Below the pieces are notes generated by a model. The model was given only the letters and a program-made list of their open reading frames with translations. It made no database searches and was not told the DNA's origin. The position numbers and the translations under genes are program-made. Shown here one piece after another: positions 15,372-59,455 of a stretch of DNA of 64,000 nucleotides. Numbering within the stretch: the stretch's first letter is position 1; each line of letters begins with the position of its first letter. Origin of the DNA: Escherichia phage PSD2002. The stretch is taken from the sequence record OK335775.1; one strand, written 5' to 3'.

Positions 15372-15380
15372 GTACAGATA

Positions 15381-15402
15381 AGGAGCCACAAAGCTCCTTT
15401 TT
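15381..15402 (+). terminator. rho-independent terminator
   Basis: AGGAGC-CACAAA-GCTCCT hairpin followed by TTTTT. Confidence 0.6.
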
Positions 15403-15419: not shown

Positions 15420-15450
15420 GTTTACTTTCCTGGATAGCCGTGATACTATA
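15420..15450 (+). promoter_or_regulatory. T4-type early promoter cassette
   Basis: GTTTAC ... TGATACTATAGCCCTATCAA; one of at least 15 near-identical copies. Confidence 0.6.
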
Positions 15451-15486
15451 GCCCTATCAAAACAAACTAACCAAACGGAAATCAAA

Positions 15487-15987: not shown

Positions 15988-16018
15988 GTTTACAACGGGC
16001 TTTAGCCGTGATACTATA
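15988..16018 (+). promoter_or_regulatory. T4-type early promoter cassette
   Basis: GTTTAC ... TGATACTATAGCCCTATCAAAACAAA, then conserved leader GAGTGAATGGAGAATAAAATG. Confidence 0.6.
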
Positions 16019-16053
16019 GCCCTATCAAAACAAATGAGTGAATGGAGAATAAA

Positions 16054-17358: not shown

Positions 17359-17435
17359 GGCCCTGTAGCTCAATGGTTAGCAGCAGTCCCCTCATAAGGG
17401 AAAGGTTACCAGTTCAAATCTGGTCCGGGTCACCA
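17359..17435 (+). tRNA. tRNA, anticodon CAT (Met/Ile-lysidine type)
   Basis: Acceptor stem GGCCCTG/CCGGGTC, T-arm ACCAG-TTCAAAT-CTGGT, anticodon loop CTCATAA, encoded CCA. Confidence 0.75.
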
Positions 17436-17440
17436 ACTAT

Positions 17441-17515
17441 GTCCCGCTGGTGTAATGGATAGCATACGATCCTTCTAAGTTTGCGGTCCTGGTTCGATCC
17501 CAGGGCGGGATACCA
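17441..17515 (+). tRNA. tRNA-Arg (anticodon TCT)
   Basis: Acceptor GTCCCGC/GCGGGAT, T-arm CCTGG-TTCGATC-CCAGG, anticodon loop CTTCTAA, encoded CCA. Confidence 0.8.
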
Positions 17516-18591: not shown

Positions 18592-18620
18592 GTTTACACC
18601 TCCTTTAAACATGATACTAT
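18592..18620 (+). promoter_or_regulatory. T4-type early promoter cassette
   Basis: GTTTAC ... TGATACTATAGACCTATCAAAACAAC. Confidence 0.6.
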
Positions 18621-18655
18621 AGACCTATCAAAACAACAGAGTGAAGGAGAGTAAA

Positions 18656-18919: not shown

Positions 18920-18977
18920 AACGTTTACATGGGCTCATGATTAAGATATTATGAGCCCATAATTTGAGGAGAACATA

Positions 18978-19380: not shown

Positions 19381-19410
19381 GTTTACAACCCTCAGAGGAC
19401 AGGGTATAAT
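19381..19410 (+). promoter_or_regulatory. early-type promoter with -10 TATAAT inside an inverted repeat
   Basis: GTTTAC ... GAGGAC-AGGGTATAAT-GTCCTC; a TATAAATC late-like box follows at 19423. Confidence 0.5.
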
Positions 19411-19452
19411 GTCCTCATGGATTATAAATCTTAATCAACTGAAGGAAATACT

Positions 19453-21273: not shown

Positions 21274-21555
21274 ATGATGAATGATTACCGTAAAAATAAA
21301 GAGCTGGCTGACGCAGTAAATGATATCCATAAAGCTATTCGTCGTGCCGAGGAAATTGCTAACAAATATGAGACTCATTTTAATATATACCCTGCTCGCG
21401 GTATGGGCGGTGACTATTATTCTCCTGGCGCCCTGAAAGCCGACCTTGCCCACTGGGAAGAATACGGTGAAGCTCAGTACGCTATTGTAAACCAACATGA
21501 TTACACTACCAGCCTAGAAAATGGTGGTTGGGTGTCCTCTTCTTCTGAATGTTAA
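21274..21555 (+). CDS. small acidic protein, C-terminal WVSSSSEC (paralog 2 of 4)
   Basis: Same family; SD AAGGAAA. Confidence 0.55.
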   Translation: MMNDYRKNKELADAVNDIHKAIRRAEEIANKYETHFNIYPARGMGGDYYSPGALKADLAHWEEYGEAQYAIVNQHDYTTSLENGGWVSSSSEC

Positions 21556-21564
21556 GGAAATAAA

Positions 21565-21777
21565 ATGACTATTGATGAAATTGAAAACCAAATCCGTGAA
21601 TTAGTACGTAAAGGCCAGTCTGTGGCTGACGAAACGGGTGAAGAGTTCCGTGTTTCTGGTCGTGGAGAATACATTTCTCCAAAGAACCCGGAATATGATG
21701 ATTACGAATGGGTCCGTGATGACTACGGTATTCCGGAAGGTGAAGGTTTCTGGTTTACATCCTCTATGTCTTGCTAA
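21565..21777 (+). CDS. small acidic protein, C-terminal WFTSSMSC (paralog 3 of 4)
   Basis: Same family; SD AAGGAAA. Confidence 0.5.
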   Translation: MTIDEIENQIRELVRKGQSVADETGEEFRVSGRGEYISPKNPEYDDYEWVRDDYGIPEGEGFWFTSSMSC

Positions 21778-21788
21778 GGTGATAAAAA

Positions 21789-22013
21789 ATGTCTGATATT
21801 AATGAATTAGAAAAAGCTGCACTTGAACTGGCTGCACTGTATAAGAAAGTAAAAGATATGGCTTCTGCTCAAAGTTTTGGTGTTGAGCTCGACGATTATG
21901 ACGGTGAAGTTCGTCTCGAAGATTGGCTGAATAGCTCGTGTTATGGCGAAGAAGCTGGTCGCACCTTCGTTGCTCAGGCCGATGGTAAAATCTGGTATCC
22001 GAGCTCATGCTAA
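21789..22013 (+). CDS. small acidic protein, C-terminal WYPSSC (paralog 4 of 4)
   Basis: Same family; SD AAGGTGA. Confidence 0.5.
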   Translation: MSDINELEKAALELAALYKKVKDMASAQSFGVELDDYDGEVRLEDWLNSSCYGEEAGRTFVAQADGKIWYPSSC

Positions 22014-22264: not shown

Positions 22265-22594
22265 ATGCATAAAGATTCAGTATTCAAATATCTTTTGAAA
22301 ACAAATAAAGAATTCTATATGAATGGACAGGCCTTCTTGTTCGTTCGTGGTAAACGTGAGATGTTTTACAAATGCGACCTCTCAATGCACCATCATATGT
22401 ATCACACCCGCGGTGAGCCTATACTGGGGTTCTCTGGTGACGAGACTAGACACATAGCTATGTACTACGACCATTTTAAGCTCAATGATTGTGGTGACAA
22501 CGCTTTGGTCTGGAATCCATCTTGGTGTCGTTGGGATACGGTAGACAACGATAAATTATTTTTAGAATATTGCAGAAGCGATGTACAACTCTAA
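22265..22594 (+). CDS. hypothetical protein
   Basis: ATG preceded by GTAGGAGG. Confidence 0.45.
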   Translation: MHKDSVFKYLLKTNKEFYMNGQAFLFVRGKREMFYKCDLSMHHHMYHTRGEPILGFSGDETRHIAMYYDHFKLNDCGDNALVWNPSWCRWDTVDNDKLFLEYCRSDVQL

Positions 22595-22637
22595 AAATAC
22601 GTGTTACTATTACCCTACACAAACATGAGGAGAACAT

Positions 22638-22877
22638 ATGTGGTATTACGCTCCGATGTCCGATAAGTCTAATGAACCGGTACGCATTACTCGCGCCAAG
22701 TTTAAAAAGATTTATGGCTTCTCTTATAAGAAGTCTGATTACGGTGTTCGTTTTGAAGATGCCCACTGTATCAATGACCCTTATGCTGAAGAAATCTCTA
22801 ATGAGATAATTCCTATCATTAAGAATAATTCTGATGATATGTGGGAATTGCATAACGATTACGTCGCTGAAATTTAA
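22638..22877 (+). CDS. hypothetical protein
   Basis: ATG after GAGGAGA; promoter-like TGTTACTAT box upstream. Confidence 0.45.
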   Translation: MWYYAPMSDKSNEPVRITRAKFKKIYGFSYKKSDYGVRFEDAHCINDPYAEEISNEIIPIIKNNSDDMWELHNDYVAEI

Positions 22878-23868: not shown

Positions 23869-23897
23869 GTGTACAAGGTCTATAGGTGTGATACTAT
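23869..23897 (+). promoter_or_regulatory. T4-type early promoter cassette (variant -35 GTGTAC)
   Basis: GTGTAC ... TGATACTATAGACCTATCAAAACAAC plus conserved leader GAGTGAAATGGAGAATAAAATG. Confidence 0.55.
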
Positions 23898-23934
23898 AGA
23901 CCTATCAAAACAACAGAGTGAAATGGAGAATAAA

Positions 23935-27020: not shown

Positions 27021-27050
27021 GTTTACATCTCCTAGAATTGTGATAGTATA
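27021..27050 (+). promoter_or_regulatory. T4-type early promoter cassette
   Basis: GTTTAC ... TGATAGTATA. Confidence 0.5.
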
Positions 27051-27102
27051 TCTACAGTTACTTGAACAGACCAATTAAAATATTTACCTTTAAGGAACCC
27101 GT

Positions 27103-27723: not shown

Positions 27724-27774
27724 GTTTACATCTCCTGTAGTCATGATACTATAGACCTATCAACTACAGGAGAT
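27724..27774 (+). promoter_or_regulatory. early promoter / stem-loop cassette (PeSL-like) upstream of denV
   Basis: GTTTAC (27724) ... TGATACTAT (27744); inverted repeat ATCTCCTGTAG (27730-27740) / CTACAGGAGAT (27764-27774) encloses the -10 and sequesters the SD. Confidence 0.6.
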
Positions 27775-27779
27775 TAAAA

Positions 27780-28196
27780 ATGACTCGTATCAACCTTACC
27801 TTAGTATCTGAATTGGCTGACCAACACTTAATGGCTGAATATCGTGAATTACCACGTGTTTTCGGTGCAGTTCGTAAGCATGTTGCTAATGGTAAACGTG
27901 TCCGTGATTTCAAAATCAGTCCTACTTTTATCCTTGGTACAGGTCATGTTACATTCTTTTACGATAAGCTTGAATTTTTACGTAAGCGACAAATTGAGCT
28001 TATAGCCGAATGTTTAAAACGTGGTTTTAATATCAAGGATACTACGGTCCAGGACATTAGTGATATTCCTCAGGAATTCCGTGGCGACTATACTCCACAC
28101 GAAGCTTCTATTGCTATATCTCAGGCCCGTTTGGACGAAAAAATTGCACAACGCCCTACCTGGTACAAACATTATGGTAAGGCGATTTATGCATAA
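27780..28196 (+). CDS. denV: endonuclease V (pyrimidine dimer DNA glycosylase)
   Basis: 138 aa; closely resembles T4 DenV from the N-terminal [31 protein letters not shown] onward. Confidence 0.95.
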
Positions 28197-29387: not shown

Positions 29388-29662
29388 TTGAAGATATAAA
29401 GGGTTATAAACCACATACCGACGATAAAATCGGTAAAGTGAATGCTATTAAAGATGCCGAAATTCGGTTAGGGCTGATGTTTAAAGCTCTGGAAGAAGAA
29501 CATGTTACTCATTATATGAACTTAGATACCGAAGAGGTTTCTGAACAAGAACTAGACCAGGCTCATGAACGCATCACCCAGATTCGTAATGCAATTGACC
29601 GTCTGAAAGAAGCAAGCATGTGGGCGTGTCGCTCTGTGTTCCAACCGGAAGAAAAGTACTAA
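29384..29662 (+). CDS. hypothetical protein
   Basis: 92-aa ORF with ATGA overlap. Confidence 0.4.
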   Translation: MIEDIKGYKPHTDDKIGKVNAIKDAEIRLGLMFKALEEEHVTHYMNLDTEEVSEQELDQAHERITQIRNAIDRLKEASMWACRSVFQPEEKY

Positions 29663-29668
29663 AGAGCA

Positions 29669-29719
29669 GTTTACATCTCCTGTAGACGTGGTACTATAGA
29701 CCTATCAACTACAGGAGAT
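29669..29719 (+). promoter_or_regulatory. early promoter / stem-loop cassette (PeSL-like)
   Basis: GTTTAC ... TGGTACTATAGACCTATCAA; inverted repeat ATCTCCTGTAG / CTACAGGAGAT identical to the denV cassette. Confidence 0.6.
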
Positions 29720-29725
29720 TACAAA

Positions 29726-30184
29726 ATGTCAGAAATTAATTCAGAAGTATTCATCCGCCGCAACAAATTACGTCGTCAGTTCGAAACCGAATTCCGCGAA
29801 CTGAACACGTCCATCAAAAAAGCCGCCGTTAAGAGCGGAGTCCCGGCCTTCTTTATTAAGTACTCTAATCACTTGTTGGACCGTGCTATCCAACGTGAAA
29901 TCGACGAAAAATACGTTTTTGCTTTATTCAAGCAACTCCATAACCATGTTAAAGAAATCCATGAATTTTTAATCCAGGAACCTCTGCCTGATGTAGAATC
30001 CGAAATTGTCCCTGGTAAAGTGTATCGTCCATTGCGTCTCGAAATTACCGATAAAACCTTATGGCTAGGTATGACCGTAGACCGTAAACATCCTGATAAA
30101 GGATATTCCCTTAAATGTCGTATGGCATTTGTTAACTCTAAACGTTTAGAAGGTAAAACCAGCACGAAAGTAATTTACTTGTGA
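29726..30184 (+). CDS. hypothetical protein
   Basis: 152-aa ORF downstream of the cassette. Confidence 0.45.
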   Translation: MSEINSEVFIRRNKLRRQFETEFRELNTSIKKAAVKSGVPAFFIKYSNHLLDRAIQREIDEKYVFALFKQLHNHVKEIHEFLIQEPLPDVESEIVPGKVYRPLRLEITDKTLWLGMTVDRKHPDKGYSLKCRMAFVNSKRLEGKTSTKVIYL

Positions 30185-30191
30185 GGACAGT

Positions 30192-30938
30192 ATGGAAACT
30201 ATAAAATATCCATATGACTACTATAAAATAATAAATGACGCCTTATCTAGGGATACACCTAATGATGCCTATACAGAAAAGCACCATATAATACCGAGTT
30301 GCGTTGGTGGTCCTGACACTCAAGACAATTTAGTTGAGCTTTATGCTGACGAACATTATTTGGCCCATATGTATCTAGCCAAAGCTAATCCAAACCACTA
30401 TGGGTTGAATTTTGCTTGGCTAAATATGAGCTCTACTTCAAATTCAAAACAAAGGTCTTATTTTGTAGATTCTGAAAATTATAAGTTGGCTAAAGAATCA
30501 TTTTCAAAATTGCAATCTATTAATAAAATTTTATTTTTCTCTAAAAAGGAAAATAGGGCTGCTCATTCAATGGCTTTAATAAAGTATTTTGAAAAGGAAG
30601 GCTCTAAAGAACGGCTCAAAGAAATTTTAAATTCGCCAAAAGTAAAAGCTAAAATGTCTGAAAAACGGGTTAAGTATTTTGAAAATCCTGAAAATAGACA
30701 AAAATTTAAAGCCATACAAAATTCTAAAGAAACTATAGAAAGGAAAAAAGCCTCTTTGCGGAAATCCCCTATATGGCATGAACCGATGTATTCACAATTA
30801 TATAAATTATGGGTAGATAATAATAAACTCAAGTGTGGAAGATTTAGTAAAATCGCAATTAAGAACGGCTTCCCTAATGTAGATTACCGAGGACTTATTG
30901 ATTATGATTTTTCTAAAAAAAACTTAAATATTCTTTAA
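30192..30938 (+). CDS. freestanding HNH homing endonuclease
   Basis: HNH motif EKHHIIPSCVGGPDTQDNLVELYADEHYLAHM; C-terminal basic module shared with the endonuclease at 53672. Confidence 0.7.
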   Translation: METIKYPYDYYKIINDALSRDTPNDAYTEKHHIIPSCVGGPDTQDNLVELYADEHYLAHMYLAKANPNHYGLNFAWLNMSSTSNSKQRSYFVDSENYKLAKESFSKLQSINKILFFSKKENRAAHSMALIKYFEKEGSKERLKEILNSPKVKAKMSEKRVKYFENPENRQKFKAIQNSKETIERKKASLRKSPIWHEPMYSQLYKLWVDNNKLKCGRFSKIAIKNGFPNVDYRGLIDYDFSKKNLNIL

Positions 30939-30940
30939 TA

Positions 30941-31462
30941 GTGGCTATTATGTGTGGTTCGTTTTCTGTAAGTGCAGCAGAACCCGTATTTACAGAAACC
31001 CAGCTTGATAATTTACATTATGCGTATGCTTTCGGTGAACAATACCAAAAGTCGGGAAAGTTCAAAGAAAACCCTAATCAAAAAGGATTAGGATATATTA
31101 TGGCCGGATTACTATGGCAGGAATCATCCGCCGGAATTAATCAGGGTTTAAATAAAGATAAGCACCATGCTTATGGCATGTTCCAAAATTACTTGCCTAC
31201 TTTAAGAAGTCGTGTTCAACAGGTAGGTTGGAAGATGTCTGATAAAGAAATAATTCGTATGGTCCAAAAACGACAGAACAGTGCCTCTTGGGCCTACATT
31301 GAACTGTCTTATTGGATTGATGTTCACAAAGGTGACCTGAGAAAAGCGATTGCTTCTTATAATGCGGGCTGGAACGTCAAAGTAGGCAGTAAATATGCTT
31401 CTGAAGTTCTAGAAAAGGCCAATTATCTAAAATCTAAAAAGATGTTTGAGGCGGTATATTAA
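30941..31462 (+). CDS. lytic transglycosylase-like (SLT domain) protein
   Basis: GLLWQESS ... GMFQ ... ASYNAG resemble SLT motifs (ES, GLMQ, AYNAG); hydrophobic N-terminus. Confidence 0.5.
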   Translation: MAIMCGSFSVSAAEPVFTETQLDNLHYAYAFGEQYQKSGKFKENPNQKGLGYIMAGLLWQESSAGINQGLNKDKHHAYGMFQNYLPTLRSRVQQVGWKMSDKEIIRMVQKRQNSASWAYIELSYWIDVHKGDLRKAIASYNAGWNVKVGSKYASEVLEKANYLKSKKMFEAVY

Positions 31463-34273: not shown

Positions 34274-34278
34274 TCAAA

Positions 34279-34304
34279 GGTCTCACTTCGGTGGGACCTT
34301 TTTT
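34279..34304 (+). terminator. rho-independent terminator
   Basis: GGTCTCAC-TTCG-GTGGGACC followed by TTTTTT. Confidence 0.7.
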
Positions 34305-34313
34305 CGTTTAGGT

Positions 34314-34342
34314 GTTTACATCCTCTAGGAACATGATACTAT
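34314..34342 (+). promoter_or_regulatory. T4-type early promoter cassette
   Basis: GTTTAC ... TGATACTATAGACCTATCAACTAATGAGGAGAA. Confidence 0.6.
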
Positions 34343-34370
34343 AGACCTATCAACTAATGAGGAGAACAAA

Positions 34371-34607
34371 ATGAAACTTACAAGTACTACGGTTTCATTA
34401 GAATATGAAATCAACGGTCGTATCCTTGAGATTAAGATATTCGACGACCGAAGTATCTTTGCCGATTATCGAGGATACAGAATTCGTCTAGAAAAGGACG
34501 AGCTCAAGGAACCCTGGCTCCTTAAAGACACATTAAAGGGTTGTGGATGTAAACTGAATACAGCCCAGGCCCAAGAATTAATTTCTACTATCAACAAATA
34601 CTGGTGA
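34371..34607 (+). CDS. hypothetical protein
   Basis: 78-aa ORF after GAGGAGAACAAA. Confidence 0.4.
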   Translation: MKLTSTTVSLEYEINGRILEIKIFDDRSIFADYRGYRIRLEKDELKEPWLLKDTLKGCGCKLNTAQAQELISTINKYW

Positions 34608-37154: not shown

Positions 37155-37159
37155 TAAAA

Positions 37160-37178
37160 GGCCTTCGGGCCTTTTTTT
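37160..37178 (+). terminator. rho-independent terminator
   Basis: GGCC-TTCG-GGCC followed by TTTTTTT. Confidence 0.7.
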
Positions 37179-37197
37179 GGGTTTAGTGCAAAAAAGA

Positions 37198-37227
37198 GTT
37201 TACACTCTCGTAGAGCATGTTATTATG
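37198..37227 (+). promoter_or_regulatory. T4-type early promoter cassette
   Basis: GTTTAC ... TGTTATTATGGACCTATCAAA plus conserved leader GAGTGAAATGGAGAATATAATG. Confidence 0.55.
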
Positions 37228-37263
37228 GACCTATCAAATCTACTGAGTGAAATGGAGAATATA

Positions 37264-38598: not shown

Positions 38599-38649
38599 GT
38601 TTACATCTCCAGTAGAAATGATACTATAGACCTATCAACTACTGGAGGT
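38599..38649 (+). promoter_or_regulatory. early promoter / stem-loop cassette (PeSL-like)
   Basis: GTTTAC ... TGATACTATAGACCTATCAA; inverted repeat ATCTCCAGTAG / CTACTGGAGGT encloses the -10. Confidence 0.6.
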
Positions 38650-38653
38650 TAAC

Positions 38654-41170: not shown

Positions 41171-41200
41171 GTTTACATCCAAGGACGGATGGAGTATAAT
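41171..41200 (+). promoter_or_regulatory. T4-type early promoter
   Basis: GTTTAC ... GGAGTATAAT. Confidence 0.55.
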
Positions 41201-41227
41201 CTTTTTAAATCTACTGAGGAGAATATC

Positions 41228-45014: not shown

Positions 45015-45312
45015 AATTGAGATTTACGGTATCCCTGAGACAGTCATGCGCTGTCCAGGGTGCATTGCTGTTCTATCGCTCCTAAATTCCCTTTCTATCC
45101 CACATACTTTCTATCCTGTGATTAACCAGACGCCGTCAGGCGCAGTATATGACAAGCCTCTTATAGTATCATTGGCCAAACGTGCAGGCTTCAAGAGCTT
45201 AGCGATACGCTATCCTGTCATATTTGTCGATAATAAGAAAATAGAAAATATTCCTGCCTTCAAATCGCTTTTGATTGAACTTGGTTATGACCGAGATTTA
45301 ATTGAAGATTAG
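44995..45312 (+). CDS. glutaredoxin-like protein (nrdH position)
   Basis: CPGC motif; lies between gene 49 and gene 55 where T4 has nrdH/nrdG/nrdD; no nrdD- or nrdG-sized ORF here. Confidence 0.4.
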   Translation: MDQKLTKIEIYGIPETVMRCPGCIAVLSLLNSLSIPHTFYPVINQTPSGAVYDKPLIVSLAKRAGFKSLAIRYPVIFVDNKKIENIPAFKSLLIELGYDRDLIED

Positions 45313-45366
45313 TGTTTACTTCCTCTCCTCACGTGTTATAGTCTATCCTATCAACACATGAGGAGA
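45313..45366 (+). promoter_or_regulatory. early promoter / stem-loop cassette (PeSL-like)
   Basis: GTTTAC ... TGTTATAGTCTATCCTATCAA; inverted repeat TCTCCTCACGTG / CACATGAGGAGA. Confidence 0.55.
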
Positions 45367-45371
45367 ACATT

Positions 45372-46240: not shown

Positions 46241-46441
46241 ATGAACCCTGAATCTAAATTATCACAGCGAATCGCCGAATCTCGTCGTCAGTTCTTTGAA
46301 AATATGATAGCCCAAGGTATTGATGACGAAGTTTTTCTGAACTGGTTTTGGAATCACAAATATTCAAGTTGCTCAGGTGCTTTGTTAATTTCCGCAGCAA
46401 TGATGTACGAAGGTTGGAAAGGCGCCAAAGCACAAAAATAG
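46241..46441 (+). CDS. hypothetical protein
   Basis: 66-aa ORF. Confidence 0.35.
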   Translation: MNPESKLSQRIAESRRQFFENMIAQGIDDEVFLNWFWNHKYSSCSGALLISAAMMYEGWKGAKAQK

Positions 46442-46470
46442 TTTACAAACTCTTGGGACCAGAGTATAAT
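46441..46470 (+). promoter_or_regulatory. early-type promoter with -10 inside an inverted repeat
   Basis: GTTTAC ... GGACC-AGAGTATAAT-GGTCC; TATAAATT late-like box at 46483. Confidence 0.5.
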
Positions 46471-46508
46471 GGTCCTACGGATTATAAATTTTAACTGAGG
46501 AAATTATT

Positions 46509-47362: not shown

Positions 47363-47396
47363 GCTTTAAAAGGGTCTTCAAATACTATGATATAAT
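47363..47396 (+). promoter_or_regulatory. possible middle promoter (MotA-box-like TGCTTTA) upstream of gene 55
   Basis: ATGCTTTAAAA followed by TACTAT / TATAAT elements; tentative. Confidence 0.35.
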
Positions 47397-47427
47397 AGAC
47401 CTATGATTTGAGTTATCTGAGGTAACA

Positions 47428-47985
47428 ATGACCGAAATTAAACTGACTAAAAATAACTATGTAAATAATAAGGAGCTTCTGAAAGCTATTACCCAATGGA
47501 AAACAGAGCTCAGAGAAAATACCGATCCTAATAAAATAGTTCGCCAGAACGACGTTATTGGCTTGGCTATTATGCTCATTGCTGAAGGACTAAGTAAACG
47601 TTTCAACTTCTCAGGGTATACCCAATCCTGGAAGCAAGAAATGATTGCTGATGGAATCGAAGCTTCTATTAAAGGTCTTCACAACTTCGACGAAACAAAA
47701 TACGACAACCCACATGCATATATCACTATGGCTTGTTTTAATGCCTTCGTTCAGCGTATCAAAAAAGAACGTAAAGAAATGGCAAAGAAATATAGCTACT
47801 TCGTCCATAATGTCTATGACAGTAATGATGACGACATGGTAGGTATTGCAGATGAAACCTTTATCCAAGATATCTACGACAAAATGACTCAGTATGAAAC
47901 CTCTTTAACTAAAGCACCAGGGTCTGATAAGAGTGCCGAACCTAAAGTCGGTGAACTGGATTTTTTATATGGAACATCAGATTAA
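47428..47985 (+). CDS. 55: late-transcription sigma factor gp55
   Basis: 185 aa; closely resembles T4 gp55 (NYVNNKELL ... [55 protein letters not shown]). Confidence 0.9.
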
Positions 47986-59395: not shown

Positions 59396-59425
59396 GTTTA
59401 CATACCACAAGGAACGTGGTAGTAT
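59396..59425 (+). promoter_or_regulatory. T4-type early promoter cassette
   Basis: GTTTAC ... TGGTAGTATCCTTCCTATCAA. Confidence 0.55.
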
Positions 59426-59455
59426 CCTTCCTATCAACTACATGAGGAAATTACA

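Follow-up and report, generated by a model that had tools for sequence, protein, structure and literature searches.

Upstream of one early gene of Escherichia phage PSD2002, an inverted repeat brackets the −10 element of a predicted promoter, and its downstream arm contains the SD of the gene that follows. Why is a promoter built into a hairpin together with the ribosome-binding site of its own gene, and is this a peculiarity of one locus or a property of the region around it? We addressed these questions in a 64,000-nucleotide stretch of sequence record OK335775.1, referred to here as the window. Megablast of the window retrieves JS98-like T4-type phages (Dhakavirus: IME08, WG01, MX01, QL01, and ABTNLS3). 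No record found by megablast is identical to it; the closest is mosaic and matches at 95.5% identity across 86% of 25 kb. Synteny with IME08 identifies gp6/5/53 on the − strand side of the window and gp4, 2, 3, 1, 57A/B, internal proteins, tRNAs, e, denV, regB, tk, nrdC, 49, 55, and 47/46 on the + strand. Judged by this similarity and gene order, the window comes from a Dhakavirus-like (JS98/IME08/WG01 group) T4-type phage and covers its large hyperplastic early region between gp1 and gp46.

The ORF behind the element is the counterpart of the gene annotated as denV (endonuclease V) in related phages. The denV cassette spans 27724–27779 on the + strand and ends at the ATG at 27780. The −35 element GTTTAC (27724–27729) is followed, inside the spacer, by the 5′ arm ATCTCCTGTAG (27730–27740). 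TGn and the −10 element, TGATACTAT, occupy 27744–27752, an inner arm TATCA lies at 27758–27762, and the 3′ arm CTACAGGAGAT covers 27764–27774, with GGAG at 27769–27772. The predicted transcription start is at about 27759. On re-reading of the sequence, the limits given for the element in the initial annotation (27724–27774) are exact. The predicted layout of these cassettes consists of the −35 GTTTAC, a 17–18 bp spacer, an extended −10 of the form TGnTAnnnT, and +1 at the A of CCTATCAA. After the predicted +1 would come a short leader with the SD and the start codon of the early gene.

The element is one of many. Its 17-mer core, TACTATAGACCTATCAA, is present in six exact copies in the window and in nine with at most three mismatches (0.19 expected), on the + strand without exception, and GTTTAC-N-TACTATAG occurs seven times where none is expected. 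Searching with a profile of these nine copies gives nine strong matches (E ≤ 3e-14) and adds three degenerate copies (27021, 45314, and 59396; E ~1e-3), for a total of 12. When all GTTTAC-N17/18-TAnnnT early promoters before + strand genes are counted, the window contains 17, all on the + strand, which is the early-gene strand, and all immediately 5′ of an SD and ATG. The initial annotation had put the number at 15 or more. This is correct for the broader class of early-promoter cassettes, but the motif quoted with it, TG(A/G)TACTATAGACCTATCAA, falls short by the exact, the near-exact, and the profile count alike. Besides the 17 GTTTAC-type sites, a promoter remnant is found at 21753. The cassette copies in the window are confined to the early region between gp57B and gp46. 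Among JS98-like genomes in IMG/VR, the exact core is present about 14–16 times per genome, with 87 unique variants. Matches to the 17-mer outside T4-like phages, nine in all, are without GTTTAC context and were dismissed as chance.

The individual copies, all on the + strand, differ mainly in how their arms pair. The regB cassette (29669–29725) shares both arms with the denV copy (ATCTCCTGTAG and CTACAGGAGAT). The nrdC.8 cassette (38599–38653) carries a compensated stem, ATCTCCAGTAG/CTACTGGAGGT, and a degenerate cassette before the 55.6 homologue (45314–45371, E = 1.3e-3) forms the stem TCTCCTCACGTGTT/AACACATGAGGAGA around the −10 TATAGT. Short stems involving the SD are seen in the cassette at 34314–34370 (TCCTC/GAGGA, weak) and before the e.8 homologue at 18592–18655 (CTCCTT/AAGGAG). 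Before an internal-protein gene (phrog_8765, internal virion protein), the cassette at 15420–15486 has the core variant TATAGCCCTATCAA, and before a trna.4-like gene (15988–16053) the core variant AGCCC pairs with GGGCT in the spacer. At 23869–23934, spacer and core (AGGTCTATAG and CTATAGACCT, respectively) form a stem around the −10 in which the SD is not involved. A second cassette family is represented by two copies, at 19381–19452, with the stem GAGGAC/GTCCTC around TATAAT followed by GGATTATAAATYTTAA, and at 46441–46508, with the stem GGGACC/GGTCCT. Another early promoter (18923–18977) has a 10-bp stem, ATGGGCTCAT/ATGAGCCCAT, around its −10. The cassette before nrdC.10 (37198–37263) contains TATTATGGACCTATCAA, and its leader is akin to AAATCTACTGAGGAG, the leader of a further GTTTAC-N18-TATAAT early promoter at 41171–41227. 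Degenerate cassettes precede an imm-like gene (59396–59455, TAGTATCCTTCCTATCAA, E = 6e-4) and an IPIII-like gene (27021–27102), the latter without a significant stem. The T4 ipIII/ipII promoters, unlike this last copy, do have a stem.

The genes led by these cassettes had been described as novel ORFs. They are instead conserved early genes of the T4 family (internal protein, trna.4-like, e.8, denV, regB, nrdC.8, nrdC.10, 55.6, and imm-like), and all ten of the products tested match PHROG families.

In their sequence features, the cassettes belong to the published class of PeSLs and T4 early promoters, as had been proposed at the outset, and their hexamers fit the PST/T4 PeSL consensus TTTACW...TAYWAT (PMC4122927). 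GTTTAC has been reported at −36 to −31 of T4 early promoters, and a preference for C at −3 to −1 in the early promoters of RB69, RB49, and 44RR (PMC1524935); the CC at −3/−2 of the cassettes agrees with the latter. GTTTAC, TGn, the −10, and an upstream A-rich tract all fit the T4 early consensus (PMC1524935, PMC2988021). Among published start-site data on T4-type early promoters, we found none that bear on these promoters. PeSLs were defined in RB49 and phi1 as an early promoter with a stem-loop at varying positions, followed by SD and ATG. In these phages they are concentrated in hyperplastic regions, are associated with indels, and can form mini-circles, and an attenuator function was proposed for their stems (PMC2839356). 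The concept was later extended to PST/T4 and nt-1/KVP40 (Comeau et al. 2014, PMC4122927). JS98 is mentioned in the PeSL papers only for PeSL-like sequences near g43. The cassettes of the window share with PeSLs the repeated intergenic combination of early promoter, stem-loop, and SD with start codon in a hyperplastic early region, as far as these parts can be recognized from sequence. They also share with them the location of some gene indels between two copies. Unlike the polyG/polyC stems of RB49, the stems of the window are AT-rich, and unlike published PeSLs the cassettes carry the −10 within the loop, in many cases place the SD in the 3′ arm, and lack a T-run. The words "ribosome" and "sequester" are absent from the 2010 PeSL paper (PMC2839356), and masking of the SD is therefore outside the description of PeSLs in the literature consulted.

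To describe the stems, we compared two folds of each cassette, a read-through fold extending from just past the −35 to 12 nucleotides beyond the ATG, and a local fold beginning at the predicted +1, seven nucleotides after the −10. Four cassettes have strong stems with the SD in the 3′ arm. For denV (27724) the read-through fold has a dG of −19.8 kcal/mol and a z score of −5.6, and the predicted probability of the SD being unpaired rises from 0.14 in the read-through to 0.48 in the local RNA. The corresponding values are −17.8 kcal/mol, −4.6, 0.22, and 0.59 for regB (29669), −17.8 kcal/mol, −4.3, 0.04, and 0.47 for nrdC.8 (38599), and −21.1 kcal/mol, −6.3, 0.21, and 0.59 for 55.6 (45314). The idea that the SD is paired in read-through transcripts and freer in local ones is thus borne out by the folding model at these four sites (0.04–0.22 unpaired versus 0.47–0.59). 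A fifth site for which such an inverted repeat had been proposed, 34314, has only a weak stem (dG −7.0, z −0.8), and the SD stems at 18592 and 15420 are weak as well.

Other cassettes fold around the −10 without reaching the SD. Stems of this type, strong or moderate, are found at 18923 (dG −20.4, z −5.0), 23869 (dG −16.9, z −4.1), 19381, and 46441, whereas folding gives no real stem at 27021 and 37198. Overall, z is −4 or lower in 6 of the 15 cassettes folded in the window, and a strong stem that contains the SD is present at only 4 of the 17 promoters. An SD is present at every folded copy, and the predicted 5′ UTRs measure 19–47 nucleotides. The loops, of 9–23 nucleotides, contain the −10, and in the cassettes with the SD in the arm the predicted +1 is about 5 nucleotides upstream of the 3′ arm. 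The promoter within the hairpin has early-type elements (a GTTTAC −35 and TGn), and the late-promoter element TATAAATA is not found in the hairpin loop. With stems of 10–16 bp, processing by RNase III is unlikely.

Is the pairing itself selected? Several lines of comparison suggest that it is. The class of stems that include the SD is represented by three forms that differ by compensated changes (CCTGTAG/CTACAGG, CCAGTAG/CTACTGG, and CCATTAG/CTAATGG), as well as by G·U variants. In an alignment of 13 sequences, 97% of the cells are paired, and 2 of the 11 base pairs show double compensatory changes; of the 143 cells, five are G·U and one is A·C. The covariation score is matched by none of 500 shuffles, and it collapses when the register is slid. 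This sample consists of about four independent loci plus their orthologues, which are not independent. Across phages the compensatory changes include TG/CA, AG/CT, and AT/AT as well as G·U wobbles. RNAalifold independently gives the same outer stem together with an inner stem, TG(A/G)TA/TATCA; this modeled inner stem offers a reason for the strong conservation of the initially transcribed TATCA.

Permutation leads to the same view. Cognate spacer–leader duplexes have a mean of −7.67, compared with −6.03 ± 0.25 for permuted pairs (0 of 2000 permutations). For the 69 unique GTTTAC-type promoters of the window and five relatives (six genomes), the cognate mean is −9.98 and the permuted mean −7.08 ± 0.28 (0 of 1000). 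A duplex between spacer and downstream sequence of −7 kcal/mol or stronger is formed by 49 of these 69 promoters (~70%), and about 30% are without one. By position of the downstream arm, 21 promoters pair with the SD, 28 with the sequence after the −10 or the initially transcribed sequence, and 20 are weak. Subfamilies with other cores have spacers that match them (AGGTCTATAG/CTATAGACCT, GGGCT/AGCCC, GATAGGGTA/TACCCTATC, and GAGGGC/GCCCTC). The comparisons agree in direction, and the bias towards G·U suggests that pairing takes place in the sense strand, as RNA. Taken as comparative sequence evidence, these observations indicate selection on the pairing of the hairpin embedded in the promoter, most likely in its RNA form.

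The arrangement extends beyond the window. T4 denV is preceded by the identical cassette, in core and in both arms. The promoter of T4 regB differs in sequence (TATAAT, leader TTTTTCTATCAG) but has the same geometry: an 18-bp stem of −24 kcal/mol joins its spacer to the SD region. Likewise, denV of ABTNLS3, fDHCT2, and IME08 has an unrelated promoter in which a stem joins GTGTTCTC, beside the −10, to GAGAACAC at the SD. A 71-nucleotide cassette query matches 2057 places in 744 records of T4-type phages. The JS98 group has 11–15 such places per genome and most others 1–7, so that in comparison with T4 early promoters the core of the JS98 group is homogenized.

The cassettes had further been claimed to bound exactly the blocks of novel ORFs, with gene content changing precisely at their positions. 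We took as breakpoints the ends of collinear BLAST HSPs between the window and five near-full-length relatives, using a heuristic gene model. The stretch from 11.6 to 50 kb contains 59 breakpoint clusters, and 10 of these touch a cassette, with a cassette footprint of 3.2% (binomial p = 1.8e-5). At the level of junctions, a break is found at 9 of the 14 with a cassette and at 27 of the 71 others (p = 0.065), and the difference disappears when the comparison is restricted to non-cassette gaps of at least 40 nucleotides (12 of 20, p = 0.54). The remaining 5 cassette junctions show no break in any of the five relatives, and these include the strong-stem copies at 38599 and 45314. The breaks fall mostly at gene boundaries. 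In contrast to the PeSL reports, then, the cassettes of the window are in this comparison no more breakpoint-prone than other intergenic gaps of at least 40 nucleotides; the exact correspondence does not hold, and the idea of cassettes as special recombination hotspots is tempered, as gene-content breaks track gene boundaries generally.

Some indels are nevertheless flanked by cassette copies, in keeping with the initial annotation. ORF93 of WG01 lies between two full copies where the window has one (37183–37236, in overlapping HSPs), and Ip7 of WG01, an extra IP gene, lies between two copies at breaks 15993/16008. An extra ORF of IME08, orf92, is flanked only by a repeat of the leader and SD (34355–34376). 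The denV cassette is wholly exchanged for another promoter between 27713 and 27777, breakpoints at the regB cassette are found at 29660/29665 in IME08 and ESCO10, and in ABTNLS3 the gene behind the 23869 cassette is replaced from 23939 on. The nrdC.8 cassette of JS98 is a hybrid, with the spacer of one stem type and the leader of another, as would be expected from a crossover within the core. Dispersed repeats of 30–60 bp may act as occasional substrates for homologous exchange, by which adjacent genes or the promoter itself would be added, removed, or swapped. The break at 30177–31001 has another cause, a homing-endonuclease gene found in the window alone. The terminase-preference motif of IME08, TTGGA|G (PMC3105952), occurs eight times in the window and in none of the cassettes.

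We consider it reasonably probable that these elements are sigma-70 early promoters with a hairpin embedded in the spacer that masks the SD on read-through RNA, and that the cassettes are also exchanged between genomes. The 5′ arm precedes the start site and is therefore transcribed only from promoters farther upstream; RNA of that origin alone can form the hairpin. At denV, regB, nrdC.8, and 55.6 the 3′ arm holds the GGAG SD, and read-through RNA is therefore predicted to be translationally silent for the gene in question. RegB of T4 is reported to cut GGAG in SDs, including its own, and to be blocked by secondary structure. The 3′ arms resemble its targets in sequence, with GGAG and an A-rich tail, and regB itself is among the genes that carry them. 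Since RegB is blocked by secondary structure, the hairpin would make read-through RNA RegB-resistant, and the GGAG of delayed-early, middle, and late read-through RNA would be shielded. On RNA from the local early promoter the site would be exposed, translated at once, and still sensitive to RegB. Synthesis would be confined to the first minutes of infection. Masking is less sure as the primary role of the hairpin, because the stems of 28 of the 69 promoters end before the SD and cannot mask it; the primary selected role may differ. For these SD-free stems, RNA stability, attenuation, and a DNA-level effect are candidate roles.

The attenuators proposed for RB49/phi1 PeSLs suggest another reading, in which the stem-loops are terminators or attenuators of upstream transcription and the SD is included incidentally. 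It gains some force from the position of the stems at gene ends, and one RB49 PeSL stem-loop cut lacZ expression as much as rrnB T1 (Arbiol et al., PMC2839356). The stems of the window are unlike the polyG/polyC stems of RB49, however, being AT-rich with loops of 9–23 nucleotides. The 3′ arm is followed by TAAAAATG, TACAAAATG, or TAACATG, no T-run follows any cassette stem in the window, and a terminator scan flagged none of them. An identity as intrinsic (Rho-independent) terminators was rejected on these sequence grounds. In addition, three cassettes (15420, 34314, and 37198), all with weak or absent promoter stems, have a separate canonical terminator just upstream (15380–15399, 34276–34301, and 37156–37175, respectively). 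We regard a function in termination or attenuation as unlikely. To a similar degree we doubt translational coupling, in which, on polycistronic RNA, a ribosome from the upstream gene melts the 5′ arm and enables downstream translation rather than the hairpin silencing it. At regB, nrdC.8, and 55.6 the upstream stop codon is 8–12 nucleotides before the 5′ arm, and a terminating ribosome could reach and open the hairpin, giving coupling instead of silencing. The distance grows to 30 nucleotides at denV, 47 at 34314, and 174 at 18592, though, and a compact genome places stops beside −35 elements by default. Coupling also leaves the stems that avoid the SD unexplained.

Two further readings dispense with a role in translation. 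A hairpin or cruciform could act in the DNA at the −10, in recombination (for example as a substrate of endonuclease VII) or in promoter opening. The −10 is indeed located in the loop, cassettes are found at some indel junctions, and the natural hybrid recombined within the core. On the other hand, G·U on the sense strand with A·C in only one of the 143 cells fits RNA, and would weaken the hairpin of the complementary strand in a cruciform; loops of 9–23 nucleotides disfavor extrusion, and breakpoints are not enriched at the level of junctions. A DNA-level function thus seems very unlikely as the main explanation. The stems could finally be functionless, hitch-hiking by-products of a single palindromic promoter cassette copied around the genome. 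The CTATAG in the −10 region is itself palindromic, and the denV and regB copies agree at 47 of 51 positions. Three compensated stem versions and cognate pairs stronger than permuted ones are not what copying would leave, and unrelated promoters keep the same geometry (T4 regB, ABTNLS3 denV), which makes hitch-hiking extremely improbable.

Masking of the SD on read-through RNA has precedents in T4. Genes e, soc, 49, and I-TevI are under translational control by a promoter inside a hairpin, and the structured long transcript of gene e yields 100-fold less lysozyme (PMC3014915). As modeled here, the cassettes resemble these systems in having the RBS in the 3′ arm and a promoter whose own transcript is without the 5′ arm. 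In the T4 cases long transcripts are silent and short ones translated, which for the cassettes of the window is a prediction. There are two differences. The T4 systems use a late (gp55) or middle promoter and delay expression, whereas the promoter in the loop of the window cassettes is an early sigma-70 type; and the unit of the window, unlike theirs, is a repeated and exchangeable cassette. Both the PeSL/T4-early-promoter class and the logic of a promoter in a hairpin are already known, and here they are combined in a JS98-like phage. The feature is non-random and well structured, but largely ordinary.

The analysis extends the PeSL/T4-early-promoter picture to JS98-like coliphages, which are widely isolated for phage therapy, and adds comparative evidence for pairing in the form of compensatory changes and of unrelated T4 sequences with the same geometry. 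More tentatively, the spacer of T-even early promoters might systematically double as an anti-SD or anti-leader arm, making promoter-gated translation a general rule of Tevenvirinae early regions; we consider this possible but on balance doubtful. We found no prior statement of such a rule in the literature searched, which did not extend to the older T4 literature. If it were true, only the immediate-early transcript of a gene would support its translation and expose it to RegB, with read-through RNA silent and RegB-resistant, and this could help to explain why RegB spares GGAG-containing middle and late mRNAs. For the cassettes themselves, if the translational reading is true, the label of a gene as early or late would depend on the promoter from which its RNA originates, not on transcription alone, and the discrimination of RegB between early and later mRNAs would have a concrete explanation.

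The segment AGACCTATCAA, which spans positions -6 to +5, shows the same degree of conservation as the -10; it lies at 27753-27763 in the denV cassette and at the corresponding positions of every strong copy. In regB of T4, CTATCA is likewise found 3' of the -10. Pairing between TATCA and TGATA may account for the conservation of this segment, which may also contribute to initiation or to the shut-off of early promoters.

A second family of early-promoter cassettes is observed at two sites, 19381-19452 and 46441-46508, where a stem surrounds TATAAT and is followed by the conserved GGATTATAAAT(C/T)TTAA. Because TATAAAT in these cassettes resembles the T4 late-promoter core TATAAATA, the motifs would be compatible with tandem promoters, and both sites may combine an early and a late start.

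Three canonical intrinsic terminators, each composed of a GC-rich stem and a T-run, are located just 5' of a cassette (15380-15399, 34276-34301, and 37156-37175). The promoter-embedded stems of the three adjoining cassettes are weak or absent, in a sample of only three, and the strong SD-masking stems, also a small sample, mostly have no terminator upstream. Among these strong copies, the cassette at 45314 is preceded by a weak terminator-like site (45280-45295).

Degenerate or partial cassettes are found at 21753-21790 (GTTTACATCCTC, without a good -10), 22585-22640 (TGTTACTATTACCCTACACAAACATGAGGAGAAC), and 47385-47428 (TATAATAGACCTATGA, without a -35). Breakpoints of the relatives adjoin two of them, at 22611 for the 22585 copy and at 47369 and 47446 for the 47385 copy. 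The window-specific insertion at 30177-31001, neither end of which lies at a cassette, carries a plus-strand ORF of 248 aa (30192-30938) directly 3' of regB. This ORF matches homing-endonuclease families (phrog_655, E=4e-36) and is missing from all five relatives compared. At 21528-21570, the alignments flanking an insertion of ~165 bp overlap by ~42 bp in window coordinates for all five relatives, which suggests a short direct repeat bordering a small-ORF indel unrelated to the cassettes. The genes for tRNA-Met (CAT, 17359-17435) and tRNA-Arg (TCT, 17441-17515) occupy the usual T4 tRNA region.

In the record of one relative, phage vB_EcoM_ESCO10 (OM386655.1), product names seem to be out of register with the genes; for instance, 'tail sheath protein' is given at the position of the dNMP kinase and 'hypothetical protein' at that of denV. 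Such a shift is an annotation artefact, and the labels of the record need caution.

Two relatives contain natural hybrid cassettes. Upstream of nrdC.8 in JS98, the spacer ATCTCCATTAG is followed by the leader CTACTGGAGG, and two pairs of the stem are lost as a result. In ABTNLS3, at about 11824, a GTGTAC/AGGTCTATAGG half is combined with the ATCTACTGAGTG leader. Both arrangements would fit crossovers within the conserved core.
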